DNA of 62,355 bases from an uncultured Nitrosopumilaceae archaeon (GCA_963825095.1 CAWGRV010000008.1:1-62355); one strand, 5' to 3'; shown: positions 36,221 through 46,638, counted from the first letter of the stretch. A program made the numbers and translations. Notes: generated from the sequence alone by a model not told the origin.

Positions 36221-37984
36221 ATGAGTGGCTCGAAGGAGTTATGTAAGAAAAATGATTTTAAAAATGAGGAAATTAAAGATGAAATAGAAGTTGTGCCATT
36301 ACAAACATACGAAACAGACGAATCAAGTAAAAAAGAAAAAAGATCTAAGGAACATAAACATCATAAGAAACATAAAAGTCATAAGCAATCCAAAAGCTCG
36401 AGGGAAGGAAAAAATTTGATTGGGCCAACAGGCCATACTGGTCCTACTGGACCAACAGGTCCTACTGGACCAACAGGTCCTACTGGACCAACAGGTCCTA
36501 CTGGTCTGGGAATTACTGGCCCAACAGGTTCTACAGGTTCCAATGGTCTGGGAATTACTGGTCCAACTGGAGTTCCTGGTCCAACTGGATCCATCGGGCC
36601 GGGCGCGAGCACTGTAGAAACAATTGCAGATTTAAGATTAACACAACCTTCATCAAACGTCGATTCAGTCACAGTTGAAGGTTATTATAACATCGGTGAT
36701 TTAGGCGGCGGGGAATTTGTTTATAATCCAAACGATACTACAAGCGCTGATAATGGAGGCACTATTATTGTGGCGAATGGTTTGTATCGTTGGTATCGGT
36801 TGAGTGATGGTGTTGTGACCGTGAAGCAATTTGGGGCCCAGGGCAATGGGATAAATGACGACACAACCGCCATTCAAAATGCTATAAATTTTGGTTCTGG
36901 CACGATTTATGTACCAAAAGGTAACTATTTAATAAGCCAATCAATTGTTTTCAATAATCCCGTAAACATAATCGGTGATGTACCAACAAGTTTTTTAAAT
37001 TCAGGAATGACGCCAACTAGTCCATATGCCTCTTGCCTAAAACTTGCGAACAACGCAAACTGCCCAATGTTTCTAATTAATACTTCTGAATCTCCGTATG
37101 GTGGTATTATTCAAAATCTAGAATTTAATGGCAATGATGCAAATCAAACTGGTGGCACAAATGTTTATGGCCTTTATTTTGCAAATGGCACCAGTGGTAC
37201 TATCGGCAGTCAATGGAAGATAGAAAAATGCTATATACATAATATTTATGATCACGGAATATTGATTGATACAGATCATATAGGGGTGAAACTCTTATAT
37301 GTTCAAGTATTTCGTGTGGGTACCGGCAGTTTAAGTGGATCTGGAATAGTTGCAAATGGAAGTAATGCAACGTTTTTCAATTGTAATATCGGGGAATGTT
37401 GGTACAATGGATTCTTGCTCCAAACCGGAAATAGTAACCTTTCCCAATGTAGTATATTTAGTTCTGGACGGTCATTTACTGGAACTGTCGGAACAGCAGC
37501 CGGTCGTGCCATTAATGTAGCTTCGAATGGTTCAAATAATATGATAATTGGTTGTACAATATCAGGAAATTATGGTGGTGGAATTTATCTGGACGGAGAC
37601 TACAACACTATTACGGGATGTTTATTTGCTGGAAATAACGGTGCTGAATTAACAGGTGTTCATGGATCTGATATTTATGTTGCCGATACTTCCGGTACGC
37701 AAACGATAGCAGCAAATGTGTTTGCTCAGCCTTCAGCGAACTATACAAGTCAATATGGCGTTCAATTCGCATCAAACGCAGCGGCCAGAATGAATAGCAA
37801 TACATTCGATAATACTAATTTTACGGTCTCTTTTACAAATCAAACGGCTTATATATTAGACGCCACGACTTCGGTGGCTGCAAGTACAGGATCAGCTATT
37901 TTACCATCAAATCCAGTTGGTTTTATAGAGGTGAATTTAAACGGCACCGGTACCTTATATAAAATACCGTATTACAATGTGTGA
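36221..37984 (+). CDS. collagen-like protein with pectate-lyase-fold (PF12708-like) right-handed beta-helix domain
   Basis: His/Lys-rich N-terminal leader ([16 protein letters not shown]). A G-P-T-G tandem array sits at about 36418-36600, built from 18-bp units. Then comes ...[31 protein letters not shown]...[39 protein letters not shown], typical of pectate-lyase-superfamily, tailspike or depolymerase N-termini. Parallel beta-helix repeats follow. Confidence 0.8.
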
Positions 37985-38050
37985 AAACGACAAAAATAGA
38001 AAATCAAAACTTGATTGTTATGCGATAATTAGAAACTATGTTCAAAATCC

Positions 38051-43812: not shown

Positions 43813-46311
43813 TTAAGCGACGCGTAGCATCACTCTCGCAAGTTGTGAAGAAGTGTTAGAGAAATCACAGATATTAGTAGTCAATCCGCCGGCAATGAGT
43901 ACCCAGGTTGTCACGACATTACTGCCAACTTTTACATTACCTAATGTTCCAGTGATCGATACTGAATTTCCAACTATCACAGTACTAGACGATTGACAAT
44001 TGACTCCATAACCTCCATTACCTGTGCCGGTACTAGTAAACAATTCCACATCACTTGCATTCACAATATGGTATCCGTCGCTCGTGTTATTGTTGAACAC
44101 GTTAGTACCCTCGGTCAGCAAACGAGAGTTATCCACGAGAACACCATATTTGCCATTGTTGCTACTTTGGACGTTTTGGAAATAACATAGTGAACCACTT
44201 ATGTCTATGCCGGTATTATGATAACCAGTCACATTAGTACTTTGAATTGAAATCATCGAGCCAAATTCAGCGGTTATTCCTACATAGCCCGCAGGAGATC
44301 CGCTTGCGGTGAAATAGCAAGTATCGACATATGACTGGGTTGATTCTGGGATTAATAATGCGGTTGTTGAAATGGCATTGGCTTCTGATATAAACAGACT
44401 ATTTTGGGCATGTATGGCTCCAGTTCCTGTTCCTTGTAAAGAAGAATTAACGAGTACACACATATAAATTGCTAAAGGAATTGCATTATTATTATTACCA
44501 ACTGTGGTTTGTACAAAAACACTACCGTCCGGTCTACCAATCAAGGTCAAGTCCAAAACAGAACTTGTATAAGGTACGCAATAAATTCCGGCAACATCAA
44601 TTTCTGAATTTGGGTACTGGTATAAACCGGCAGAGATAATTTGCCTGCCTGCCGTACTTAATGCAAGCGGTGGTGCTTTTACTAGCCAATCGCCAGAGCC
44701 GCCCGTAAATCCTATCTTCGTGTTCGTGAACAAGAAACTCCCCATAAAAAGTTGTGCGGATCTGAATAGGCGTGGTGTAGGAAGGGATAATATATTAATA
44801 TCCCTAAACCATACGAGTCTACCGGTTTGCTGACCAAGTGTTGTAATTACTGGGGAAACTGGGTCCGTCAATTCGATTGTTGTGCCCCTATTGAACAATG
44901 TGAATGTATCGCCAGCCGCTGGTAGAGGTGCTGCATCGAGAATTGGATCATCTAATGTATTAAATGCACACACAGAATAACTTTCACTTGTGGCACTCAA
45001 TTGTATATTATCGTATATTAGGAATCCTATCTGATCAGCAGTGCCTATACCAGATGTGATTCGAATGAAGACGCCTTCCAATGTATGACTCGCAGAAGAA
45101 GCGGCGACAGTCGCTATGAAACTCTGAGCATCACTTGGATCCGAAACAGTCGCAGCTGCATAGGTGCCCGTGACTCCCGTGAGAGTACCGGAATAAATGG
45201 TACTGAGGCTTCCCTGAATGGTGATAGGATAAGCTTGTTCACCATATTGAATCAATGGTATTTCCAAACTGTCTGTCGATAGTACCAAAGGATCGCAGAA
45301 AATTGTTCCCGTCATATCCCATCCAATTCCTCCAGCTACATTTACAGCCTTTTGTATAGTGGCTAATCCGTTACTCGGACTCAAACCCGAATTATTATCT
45401 GAACCACCAACTGTTACATATACCATGAGATTTTCCGGCGCAACGGAAGTACTGGAATTTATCAACCACATATTAGTTAACAATCCAGTGACCGAAGTTG
45501 GCAAATAGGTGAGAGTAGCCTGCATTCCACTAAAGGCGGTCGTGTAGTTTCCGAAATAACTGGTACCATTGTTAACAATAAAACCATCTGTTCCGCCGGC
45601 GATGAAAGTGATTGGATTCTCGGTAGAACCATCGTCACCATAACTCTTACCAACGTCATTGATAAAGTATTGTTTTCCCTGAGTTGCTGTTGGTAGAGTA
45701 ATGCTTATGACTGCAGCACTACTGTTAACAACAATTAGTTGGTCAGTTAAAGAAGCGGTGTAATTGCTCGAGATGACGATGATGTTACTAATCACAGAAC
45801 TTGGACCGGTTGGACCTGTAGTGCCGGTCGGCCCAGTAGGACCCGTGGGACCAGTTTCACCTGTTGGACCAGTTTCACCAGTTGGACCGGTGTCGCCGAT
45901 CGAACCAGTATAACCGGTCGGACCAGTTGATCCCGTTGGACCGGTAGAGCCGGTTAGCCCCGCGCCAGTTGATCCCGTCTGACCAATCGGACCGGTCGAT
46001 CCCGTTGGACCGGTGGAACCCATTGTTGGACCGGTCGGTCCAGTAATACCGACAGAACCAGTAGGCCCAATGGACCCCGTTGATCCCGTTGAACCTGTTG
46101 ATCCTGTCGGTCCTGTTGATCCTGTCGGTCCTGTTGATCCTGTCGGTCCTGTTGATCCTGTCGGTCCTGTTGATCCTGTCGGTCCAGTTGATCCTGTTGA
46201 TCCTGTCGGTCCAGTTGATCCTGTTGATCCTGTCGGTCCAGTTGATCCCGTCGGTCCAGTTGGACCCCTTGGCCCAGTAATACCCGGGATTTTCTGTGTT
46301 TGCTTGAATGT
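43813..46311 (-). pseudogene. collagen-like / parallel beta-helix fibre protein whose K/H-rich N-terminal leader (ORF 45954..46481) is out of frame with the body
   Basis: The 736-aa ORF begins [11 protein letters not shown]..., but the same frame stays open upstream through another roughly 96 G-x-y codons (the 18-bp tandem array at about 46080-46262) to a TAA at 46312-46314, without an ATG. A different frame, from ATG 46481, encodes MLLAKKYSKK...[18 protein letters not shown], the leader type seen on the other three collagen genes. It then reads the repeats out of frame, implying a frameshift between the leader and the repeats, at about 46262-46320. The body has beta-helix repeats ([15 protein letters not shown]..., [25 protein letters not shown]). 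Confidence 0.65.
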
Positions 46312-46638
46312 TTATGTGTTTTTTTATGACTCTTTGAGTGTCGGCGTTTTCCACTACCGAAAGATTTTATTTTGGACTTTTTATGTGACGTTTCTATTTT
46401 TTTCAGAAGTCTCTTTTTTTTAGCACTTTTTTTACCCATGATTGTATAACATTTCTTGCTATATTTTTTTGCCAACAGCAAGATATTATTTTACTTGTTA
46501 AATGATGATTATTGGTTATACCAACTGAAATAATATAATTTTCTAAAAATGACAAGATTTTATTTTTATTATTTGCTTAACCGGTAAATAATAAATTTAA
46601 TAATACAAAATAAATTTCTTGGTTGGTTATTTCACAAC

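Follow-up and report, generated by a model that had tools for sequence, protein, structure and literature searches.

What kind of protein is encoded by four neighbouring collagen-like genes of this contig, and what might their unusual basic N-termini do? We analysed the whole stretch of 62,355 nucleotides, hereafter the window. The four genes, G1 to G4, lie between 36.2 and 46.5 kb, and each encodes a basic leader rich in Lys, His and Ser, GPT-type collagen and a globular head. The initial annotation had described this design, and we could indeed read the leader and the collagen triplets in all four genes; it went wrong in presenting G4 as a single open reading frame, in the start of G2 and in counting the G4 head among the pectate-lyase-fold heads. 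Its domain-level interpretation of the heads stands, but the frameshift in G4 was overlooked and with it the fact that two genes are disrupted, G2 by an insertion sequence (IS) and G4 by the frameshift, so that only G1 and G3 are intact in the assembly. We favour, with moderate confidence, a reading by analogy in which G1 to G4 would be trimeric fibres of the virion, expressed late, and their leader a candidate module for addressing or anchoring. The genes and their parts are as follows.

36221-37984, plus strand: G1, one 587-aa open reading frame
36221..36421, plus strand: G1 leader, aa 1-67, acidic at its N-terminus and followed by a Lys/His core (K16, H5; pI 9.4)
36422..36607, plus strand: G1 collagen shaft, aa 68-129, predominantly GPT triplets, interrupted twice by G-L-G, ~18 nm if triple-helical
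36608..37984, plus strand: G1 head, a tailspike-type neck, PF12708 first rungs and a right-handed beta-helix
38084..40089, plus strand: G2 5' part, comprising leader, collagen and the portion of the PF12708 head that precedes the IS
38084-38281, plus strand: G2 leader
38282-38395, plus strand: G2 collagen, 12 triplets, ~11 nm
41605..41893, plus strand: G2 3' part, the final 95 codons, which continue the frame of the 5' part after removal of the IS and one duplication copy
42259-43599, minus strand: G3, 446 aa
43297..43599, minus strand: G3 leader, aa 1-101 (K25, R10, H14, S16, C3; pI 10.6)
42784..43296, minus strand: G3 collagen shaft, aa 102-272, ~171 aa, ~54 triplets, ~49 nm
42259..42783, minus strand: G3 head, ~174 aa, a TNF/C1q/BclA-like jelly roll
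46287..46439, minus strand: G4 leader, 51 aa from ATG 46439 (K18, R4, H6; pI 12)
46284..46311, minus strand: interval in which the -1 shift of G4 (equal to a 1-nt deletion) must fall
45799..46284, minus strand: G4 collagen shaft, 162 aa, 53 triplets, ~46 nm
43813..45798, minus strand: G4 head, 661 aa, a member of a rare giant-virus fibre-head family

When all 62 kb were scanned in six frames, runs of at least six G-X-Y triplets turned up only in G1 to G4. Lys/Arg/His-rich windows, defined as 30 aa with at least 15 K, R or H including at least 4 H, were confined to the G1, G3 and G4 leaders, the G2 leader being less His-rich and below this cut-off. Proline contributes 0-1 and cysteine 0-3 residues to each of these Lys/His/Ser-rich leaders. 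Relative to the Pfam Collagen (PF01391) gathering cut-off of 27.2 bits, G3 (81.5 bits, E 3.8e-23) and G4 (35.6 bits) score above and G1 (21.0 bits) and G2 (17.6 bits) below, despite uninterrupted triplets in both of the latter (10+6 in G1 and 8 in G2). The collagen of G3 begins with basic triplets, and in that of G4 the Y position is Thr for 46 of the 53 triplets. A wrong choice of start codon, raised earlier as a way in which the leader could be an artefact, is ruled out for G1 and G3: no in-frame Met occurs between the first start and the collagen, and translated collagen therefore carries the leader. G2 has one internal Met, within the basic core of its leader (KKHKHHKMCKSEKK); its residue-by-residue agreement with that of G1 favours counting the leader as part of the protein.

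The paralogs G1 and G2 align at 39% identity across 380 aa, leader included, and their aligned leaders are conserved about as well as their heads. PF12708 (Pect-lyase_RHGA_epim, gathering cut-off 27 bits) matches G1 at aa 199-254 (E 1.8e-14, 54.5 bits) and also G2 (E 4.6e-11, 43.4 bits), which carries the VEGYYIPGDGGGG...FGAKGDGATDDT motif. Beta_helix (PF13229, cut-off 25.9 bits) matches G1 at aa 374-542 (E 1.7e-9, 38.0 bits), and the Pfam search gave no PF13229 match for G2 on its own. A PDB sequence search matched the 5w5p tail fibre to the G1 head (E 6e-7), PHROG 4250 'EPS depolymerase' matches the G1/G2-type head (E 2e-21), with tail-fibre families among the PHROG matches too, and the family profile of the G1/G2 heads matches phi29 gp12, Acinetobacter phage tailspikes, AlgE epimerases and GH55. 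Judged from sequence, both heads belong to the pectate-lyase/tailspike beta-helix superfamily, across which catalytic residues are not conserved. The neck motif IAxLR...GYYxxGDGGGG...DNGGTIIV, a first rung of FGAKGDGxTDDT and the beta-helix are common to G1, G2 and the phage tailspikes (phi29 gp12, Acinetobacter 5W5P/5W6P, PHROG 4250). Whereas those tailspikes start with an N-terminal particle-binding domain, G1 and G2 have the basic leader and collagen instead, and Pfam and PHROG searches found no phage-type adaptor domain upstream of their neck. The closest homologs of the two heads are bacterial or phage proteins; Pfam Collagen was found in none of the 109 homologs of the G1 head, the sole short run (6 triplets) being in one of them (P0025).

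G2 had been annotated to start at 38051. The start is most likely ATG 38084, which aligns with the G1 start and is, like it, preceded by TATATAAATATAAT. The gene is interrupted by a mobile element:

40090..41595, minus strand: IS4-family element, 1506 bp, interrupting G2
40348-41538, minus strand: IS transposase, 396 aa, DDE_Tnp_1 57.8 bits

This element combines the DDE transposase, terminal inverted repeats and target-site duplication of the IS4 family. The inverted repeats are imperfect and ~20 nt long (CAATGCT(A/G)GTAACTTAAGT), a 9-bp target duplication, AGCACCGCA, lies at 40081-40089 and 41596-41604, and NCBIfam IS4_1 matches the transposase with E 1.8e-28 and 99.6 bits, against an equivalog cut-off of 115 bits. 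Sequence comparison dates the insertion as recent, because a second copy in the window (17445-18953) is 99.3% identical and the 9-bp duplication is intact. As it stands, the G2 open reading frame extends to 40165, with its final 25 residues encoded by the IS; removal of the IS and one duplication copy restores a protein of 764 aa from ATG 38084.

For G3, the initial annotation had suggested a C1q/BclA-like C-terminal domain, and the structural prediction bears this out. The head model (pLDDT 85.9) has the ten-strand jelly roll of TNF, C1q or BclA structures. Outside the collagen, G3 has no Pfam or NCBIfam match, the curated C1q, TNF and BclA families included, and the head has no PDB sequence match at E up to 10. 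The top match in BFVD is A0A8K1T0V2 of Megavirus baoshan (72% identity, TM 0.95), and collagen-like proteins of Homavirus, Powai lake megavirus and Klosneuvirus match as well. We found 173 homologs of the head (~155 aa) at E ≤ 0.01, the best 120 of the 173 at 57-77% identity, and the family alignment has 30 invariant columns. Collagen-like proteins of Mimiviridae and of Paenibacillus/Bacillus have the same head domain, likewise with collagen upstream, and the bacterial homologs are 60-77% identical in the head. G3 falls within this family, and G1, G2 and G4 fall outside it. G3-type homologs elsewhere, bacterial and others, have basic, Cys-containing leaders ahead of the collagen. Several Mimiviridae/Firmicutes members (P0124, P0145 and L007) have a short basic Cys/His leader; the Lys/His/Ser-rich leader of G3, at 101 aa, is much longer.

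The description of G4 as a single gene (43813-46481) does not hold, as its leader and collagen are in different frames. Collagen and head share a frame that stays open between 46311 and 43813; its first ATG, at 46023, leaves 87 collagen codons upstream. The shift interval contains the short runs aaaa/ccc/ggg and, read directly, no canonical slippery heptamer; one base added there gives a joined protein of 875 aa. Three pectate-lyase-type beta-helix heads had been proposed for the cluster. PF12708 supports this for G1 and G2, whereas the G4 head has no PF12708 match in the Pfam search and matches the generic Beta_helix model in its C-terminal ~140 aa only (PF13229, 31.3 bits vs a cut-off of 25.9). 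Beta_helix is found in four of the six members of the G4-head family (best 1.7e-12), and the family profile matches the phage receptor-binding protein 8egr. The AF2 model of this head is unusable (pLDDT 35.6). A search of 1.84 billion representatives gave 5-6 homologs of the G4 head; their stalks are of other kinds, and neither collagen nor a basic leader occurs in any of them. Homologs of both the G3 and G4 heads occur in giant viruses or beside an NCLDV-type capping enzyme.

The four genes share a front end but carry three unrelated head types, two resembling phage tailspikes and one of TNF/C1q type. Since homologs of the G1 and G4 heads are rarely or never on collagen, the leader and collagen together look like a locally shared front end under swapped heads. 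Neither IMG/VR nor the JGI metagenome scan yielded another locus with the leader-plus-collagen-plus-beta-helix design. The leaders are low-complexity and consist partly of short tandem repeats. Shared composition, not homology, may underlie the likeness between the G1/G2 and the G3 and G4 leaders. Furthermore, with two of the four genes disrupted, the set may not be under strong selection.

The surroundings of the cluster bear on its origin and expression. The relevant features are:

36203..36216, plus strand: TATATAAATATAAT motif, a 14-mer containing TATATA, 5 nt upstream of the G1 ATG
38066..38079, plus strand: TATATAAATATAAT again, identical in sequence, 4 nt ahead of ATG 38084 (G2)
46639-47967 and 48162-49487, minus strand: two FG-GAP-repeat paralogs, on the same strand as G3 and G4

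The early-promoter motif AAAATTGA occurs in 37 copies in the window, and 13 of the 36 open reading frames have it upstream, at about -50 to -60. Because of this placement we attribute the contig, on sequence grounds, to a giant virus (Nucleocytoviricota); it also encodes ankyrin/F-box, BTB, RING, RCC1, Ser/Thr kinase and P450 proteins, a content typical of such viruses. In pacmanvirus, AAAATTGA is the early signal and TATATA the late signal (PMC11788076). A motif scan of the window found no AAAATTGA upstream of G1 to G4 or the FG-GAP genes. TATATA, the late-promoter core of the ASFV/pacmanvirus type, is at -18 of G1 and G2, within the only two exact copies of TATATAAATATAAT in the window; an upstream motif scan found no exact TATATA for G3 and G4. 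GC3 of the fibre genes (0.19-0.40) is mostly inside the range of the other genes (0.26-0.37), and they therefore look resident. As described earlier, two FG-GAP paralogs adjoin the cluster (Pfam E 7.6e-10 and 3.3e-17; 75% nucleotide identity). They have neither leader nor collagen and are linked to the fibre genes by adjacency only, and the claim of a dedicated module is therefore unsupported. A nearby sulfatase paralog is, like G4, frameshifted.

Several other explanations have to be set against virion fibres. An origin of the contig from a bacterium or prophage, with ordinary phage tail fibres as the gene products, is scarcely credible: for the G1/G2 heads the best homologs come from bacteria or phages and the IS4-family transposase is a bacterial-type element, but the gene content and the 37 promoter motifs are giant-virus-like, phage structural genes are absent, and the G3/G4 heads point to giant viruses. 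The mostly bacterial or phage homologs of the heads, together with the interruption of G2 and the frameshifts in G4 and the sulfatase paralog, would also suit a decaying set of accessory genes of bacterial or phage origin that the virus no longer uses. We consider this improbable, given that G1 and G3 are free of internal stops over 587 and 446 codons, that the recent IS insertion takes only the last 95 of the 764 codons of G2, and that GC3 matches the remainder of the contig. The G4 frameshift could moreover be an assembly error or minority allele, and a leaderless 736-aa product from ATG 46023 is possible. The proteins might instead work within the host cell, where the leader would direct them to the nucleus or nucleolus or serve as a nucleic-acid-binding tail. 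In favour, Lys/Arg/His-rich stretches resemble classical basic localisation signals and, by eye, the four N-termini do not look hydrophobic. This reading is very unlikely, however, since in every characterised case (BclA, phage fibres, PLN_19/21) collagen joined to a tailspike- or TNF-like head forms a fibre that is extracellular or on the particle surface, and the late-type promoter context suits structural genes.

The leader itself is harder to judge. Our proposal that it is a portable Lys/His signal for addressing or anchoring, mounting unrelated heads (two beta-helix types and a TNF-like one) on one particle, is tentative. Alternatively, it would have no specific function and be a low-complexity expansion born of replication slippage in an AT-rich genome, tolerated ahead of proteins that fold from the C-terminus; this is a substantial though still unlikely alternative. 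The G3 leader includes the HHSKESCS unit in a 45-nt tandem repeat (15-aa repeat, 3.2 copies), the core of the G1 leader is an 18-nt repeat, no clear positional homology links the G3 and G4 leaders with the G1/G2 ones, and a GC content of ~30% favours the Lys codons AAA/AAG. On the other hand, such Lys/Arg/His windows are found nowhere else in 62 kb and stand directly upstream of collagen in G1, G3 and G4, AT bias alone does not explain the enrichment in His, the G1/G2 leaders are conserved about like their heads, and related G3-type proteins elsewhere also have basic Cys/His leaders.

The analogies behind the virion-fibre reading are pacmanvirus PLN_19/PLN_21, BclA and the N-terminal addressing domain of mimivirus. 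The virion of pacmanvirus lostcity contains the tail-fibre-like PLN_21, with a pectate-lyase domain, and the tail-spike-like PLN_19, with a C1q domain; the two proteins are present at ~34 and ~31 copies per virion, roughly one trimer per vertex, and a role in host recognition has been proposed (PMC11788076). Compared by description, both viruses have neighbouring pectate-lyase-type and C1q-type fibre genes and the same TATATA and AAAATTGA motifs. The present cluster differs in having four genes, three head types and two disrupted genes, and the paper describes no collagen stalk or Lys/His leader for PLN_19/PLN_21 (PMC11788076). The exosporium fibre BclA of Bacillus anthracis is a more distant parallel, found in a spore and not a viral context and with undetectable sequence similarity in the head; NCBIfam gave no exosporium-leader match for the leader. 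In mimivirus, the 50-aa low-complexity N-terminal domain of the GMC-oxidoreductase suffices to address GFP to the fibril layer (PMC11042495). Like the role proposed here for the leader, that domain (~50 aa) is common to different fibril proteins. However, it is Cys-Pro-rich, by composition none of the G1 to G4 leaders is Cys-Pro-rich over its N-terminal ~50 aa, and homology is not evident; the mimivirus domain is the only experimentally proven addressing domain. These published precedents (PMC11788076, PMC11042495) support, by analogy, a surface-fibril location, glycan-directed heads and a targeting leader as plausible readings.

In the mechanism that we propose, a strongly basic and probably disordered leader of 50-100 aa would form the N-terminus, followed by a shaft of GPT-type collagen triple helix estimated at 11-49 nm, whose Thr-rich triplets may be O-glycosylated. 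The C-terminal head, whose known relatives by fold form trimers, would nucleate trimerisation and zip up the shaft, as in BclA and C1q. Produced late, the fibre would be built into the surface of the virion, its leader inward and its head pointing away. That head may bind a surface polysaccharide of host or prey, which the G1 and G2 heads could possibly also cleave, and the shared leader would be the addressing or anchoring element that mounts different heads on the same particle. The design of G1 to G4 resembles fibres already known from other giant viruses, and if the leader anchors them, its many histidines might give pH-sensitive attachment in the phagosome.

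The fibre cluster comprises four neighbouring collagen-like genes (G1 to G4), each of which encodes an N-terminal basic, Lys/His-rich leader, a shaft of GPT-type collagen triplets and a C-terminal head:

36221-37984, plus strand: G1, 587 aa; 67-aa leader, 62 aa of mainly GPT triplets, 458-aa head
38084 (ATG) to 41893 once restored, plus strand: G2, a paralog of G1 interrupted by an insertion sequence (IS)
40090-41595: the IS4-family element in G2, 1506 bp; transposase at 40348-41538, minus strand
42259-43599, minus strand: G3, 446 aa; 101-aa leader, about 171 aa of collagen, head of about 174 aa
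46439 (ATG of the leader) to 43813 (stop), minus strand: G4; 51-aa leader (pI 12), 162 aa of collagen, 661-aa head

A six-frame scan covered the entire 62,355-bp window. Runs of at least six G-X-Y triplets are confined to G1-G4, and 30-residue windows with at least 15 Lys, Arg or His residues and at least four His occur in three leaders only, those of G1, G3 and G4. Being less rich in His, the leader of G2 falls under this cut-off. Because both features are restricted to the fibre genes, the association of leader and collagen is not due to chance, and the initial annotation of four collagen genes with a basic leader is borne out. The G1 leader opens with an acidic stretch and continues as a Lys/His core, and the G3 leader (25 Lys, 10 Arg, 14 His and 16 Ser) is based on a 45-nt tandem repeat. 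In the G4 collagen, Thr occupies the Y position of 46 of the 53 triplets. G1 and G2 are 39% identical across their first 380 residues, with leaders that align residue by residue.

A wrong choice of start, named at the outset as a possible source of the leader, does not explain it in G1 and G3. No in-frame Met lies between the annotated start and the collagen of G1 or G3, and the leaders of these two genes are therefore no such artefact. G2 has one in-frame Met before the collagen, within the basic core; here the match to the G1 leader supports a genuine leader. From sequence comparison, G2 most likely starts at ATG 38084 rather than at 38051 as first proposed, since this codon matches the position of the G1 start in the alignment and one 14-mer (TATATAAATATAAT) precedes both; the window has only these two exact copies of it.

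G4 cannot be read as the single gene originally described, as its leader and its collagen and head occupy different frames. The collagen and head frame stays open between 46311 and its stop codon at 43813, and its first start codon, ATG 46023, leaves 87 collagen codons upstream without a start. The leader frame reaches it only through a shift of -1 at some point in 46284-46311 (aca ttc aag caa aca cag aaa atc ccg ggt), and one added base in the aaaa, ccc or ggg runs yields an 875-aa protein. A programmed frameshift is unlikely because the junction has no X XXY YYZ slippery heptamer; the break is a mutation or an assembly error.

The element in G2 carries imperfect inverted repeats at its ends, and its target is duplicated over 9 bp (AGCACCGCA). 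Excising the element with one copy of the duplication restores an uninterrupted reading frame of 764 aa from ATG 38084, of which the insertion costs the last 95 codons. A second copy of about 1.5 kb at 17445-18953 is 99.3% identical to the copy in G2 and has no matching target duplication. A 75.7-kb sibling contig carries the same transposase, and a 1580-bp Logan contig (SRR27943128) has it on its own. Given the two near-identical copies and the occurrence on the sibling contig, a bacterial-type IS is actively transposing within this giant-virus genome. In the intergenic stretch ahead of G1, which is unusually GC-rich, an exact 12-mer from the right end of the IS (CCAGCATTGTGC; 36128-36139, within 35980-36160) lies about 85 nt upstream of the gene and is followed by a GC-rich hairpin; it may be a solo IS end or footprint. 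Another disrupted gene near the fibre cluster is a sulfatase (33220-34706), in which a frameshift near 34240-34262 leaves two ORFs; the paralog at 52440-54149 (569 aa, 71% nucleotide identity) is intact.

Three of the heads had been assigned a pectate-lyase fold. The assignment stands for G1 and G2, which match PF12708 at 54.5 and 43.4 bits (cut-off 27), and only partly for G4. The G1 head also matches Beta_helix, and both heads match phage tail-fibre and 'EPS depolymerase' PHROGs (E about 1e-20). G1 alone retrieves an Acinetobacter phage tail fibre (5w5p) and a phage pectin-lyase-like protein (7chu) from the PDB, and a profile of G1, G2 and 19 homologs matches AlgE epimerases, GH55 glucanases, phi29 gp12, phage tailspikes, K5 lyase and polygalacturonases. 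A match of the G2 tail to K1-lyase_C (E 0.008) was below the cut-off and was disregarded. The 109 database homologs of this head type are bacterial or phage-like and carry other N-terminal parts; none has a Pfam collagen domain and one protein (P0025) has a short run of six triplets. No relative of the G1 head came up in scans of IMG/VR.

The G4 head family is very small: 1.84 billion representative proteins include five or six relatives. These have non-collagen stalks without a basic leader, and one, on a soil contig, adjoins an NCLDV-type mRNA capping enzyme. Beta_helix is matched by four of six family members and the family profile matches a phage receptor-binding protein, these matches covering only the C-terminal ~140 residues of the G4 head. 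A PDB sequence search gave only noise for this head, and its AF2 model, built on an alignment of two sequences, is unusable (pLDDT 35.6).

The G3 head, a TNF/C1q/BclA-like jelly roll, is modeled confidently (40 sequences; pLDDT 85.9, pTM 0.83). It belongs to a widespread, highly conserved and unnamed family (57-77% identity among the 120 best matches) found in Paenibacillus/Bacillus collagen-like proteins, some Bacteroidota and giant viruses. A PDB sequence search returned nothing for it, and neither Pfam nor NCBIfam has a model for the domain (42259-42783; homologs P0110-P0229). Among viral structures, a collagen-like protein of Megavirus baoshan is the best match (72% identity, TM 0.95). Giant-virus and Paenibacillus/Bacillus versions of the domain share 57-77% identity, and a sequence kept so similar across domains of life points to recent exchange or to strong constraint.

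A second locus of the cluster's design turned up neither in IMG/VR nor in the JGI metagenome scan nor among the protein hits. The metagenome scan, run with the G1/G2 alignment and leader-derived patterns, gave collagen-level matches only (leucine-rich-repeat plus collagen proteins and an actinobacterial BclA-like gene) and one contig on which a Lys/His-rich ORF and a collagen gene are separate. On this AT-rich contig of 2.1 kb (L005), a 200-aa ORF (653-1255) with a Lys/His-rich tail (KKHKHHK...KKHHRRKKTH...) lies just upstream of a collagen and leucine-rich-repeat gene (1320-2126) preceded by TATATAAATG, and basic segment and collagen are unfused. Nothing in IMG/VR matched a DNA pattern that sets HKHHK 40-70 nt upstream of GPTG; as a control, the pattern matched G1 in the window.

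The window makes up an entire, publicly deposited contig. Its genes are of kinds usual in giant viruses: ankyrin/F-box, BTB, RING, RCC1, protein kinase, P450, Rieske oxygenase and sulfatases. The octamer AAAATTGA occurs in 37 copies in 62 kb and lies ~50-60 nt upstream of 13 of the 36 ORFs (for example those at 20080, 25857, 30628, 31232, 33220, 49699 and 54689). The early promoter of Mimiviridae and pacmanviruses has such a -50 to -60 placement (PMC11788076), and this arrangement identifies the contig as giant-virus DNA. The octamer is absent upstream of G1-G4 and of the two adjoining FG-GAP genes. TATATA, the late-promoter core reported for ASFV and pacmanvirus (PMC11788076), is present at -18 in G1 and G2 and in imperfect versions only in G3 and G4. 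Like the G1 head, one FG-GAP paralog and two other window ORFs gave no relatives in the IMG/VR scans, so the lineage is placed no further than a giant virus with AAAATTGA as its early motif. The protein collection searched lacks exact copies of G1 and G3. The GC content of the fibre block is 0.39-0.44 versus about 0.33, the excess coming from Gly, Pro, Thr and Ala codons. Since the GC3 of the fibre genes (0.19-0.40) is mostly inside the range of the other genes (0.26-0.37), they look resident rather than freshly acquired, and recent horizontal acquisition was rejected as the source of the raised GC.

Elsewhere in the window, a 60-130 nt intergenic repeat family with several copies (18947-19925, 48014-48131 and 56727-56784; both orientations, 83-92% identity), one of which separates the two FG-GAP genes, may represent a MITE-like element. 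Genes for a FAD/BBE-type oxidase (2267-3880), a cytochrome P450 (20080-21723) and a Rieske KshA-like (3-ketosteroid 9-alpha-hydroxylase-type) oxygenase (25857-27044) may form a sterol- or lipid-modifying set. Tandem duplications are found at 58664-58806 (73 nt twice, 100% identity) and 50334-50489 (83 nt twice, 95%).

A trimeric fibre design is shared by BclA, C1q, phage tailspikes and adenovirus/PRD1 spikes, and in BclA the GPT threonines are O-glycosylated. By analogy, the parts of G1-G4 fit this design: the C-terminal head would trimerise and nucleate the shaft, the collagen shaft would set the reach and the leader would keep the fibre attached to the particle. Taking 0.286 nm per residue, we estimate a reach of about 18, 11, 49 and 46 nm for G1, G2, G3 and G4, respectively. 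The fibres would be expressed late and sited on the virion, the GPT threonines may be O-glycosylated as in BclA, and the G1 and G2 heads may bind or cleave glycans. Leader and shaft would form a particle-specific mounting part and the heads exchangeable tips, a reading under which a common front end on three unrelated heads, whose relatives use other stalks, is expected. Pacmanvirus lostcity virions contain a tail-fibre-like protein with a pectate-lyase domain plus a tail-spike-like one with a C1q domain, at about 34 and 31 copies or roughly one trimer per vertex, for which host recognition was proposed (PMC11788076). In mimivirus, a low-complexity N-terminal domain of ~50 aa, common to different fibril proteins, suffices to send GFP to the fibril layer (PMC11042495); for the G1-G4 leader, addressing is a candidate role.

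Alternatively, the leader may be a functionless low-complexity expansion, as tandem repeats inside it and the AT-rich genome would allow. Its exclusive presence on collagen genes, its His enrichment, its conservation between G1 and G2 and the similar basic Cys/His leaders on other G3-type proteins argue otherwise. The cluster may also be decaying, with two of the four fibre genes disrupted and the nearby sulfatase frameshifted, yet both G1 and G3 are whole, the insertion of the IS is recent and the G4 frameshift may be an assembly error. Architecture and context make it unlikely both that the proteins act inside the host cell and that the contig is of bacterial origin. Taken together, we consider the fibre model as a whole somewhat probable; a specific addressing role for the leader is a tentative and rather doubtful proposal.

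Precedents in giant viruses exist for collagen-like proteins, for C1q/BclA-like heads and for pectate-lyase-type fibre proteins alike, so the advance would be incremental unless the function of the leader is proven. In the literature and databases searched, we found no description of a collagen stalk fused to a tailspike-type beta-helix head, nor of a Lys/His leader common to three head families. To our knowledge, the attachment of giant-virus fibres and the diversification of their tips are poorly understood, and the sole demonstrated addressing signal is that of mimivirus. The cluster gives a short candidate targeting sequence, and its tailspike-type heads would be candidate glycan-binding or -cleaving tips in a eukaryotic virus. 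One front end on three unrelated heads suggests that, as with phage tail fibres, receptor-binding tips are exchanged like cassettes.
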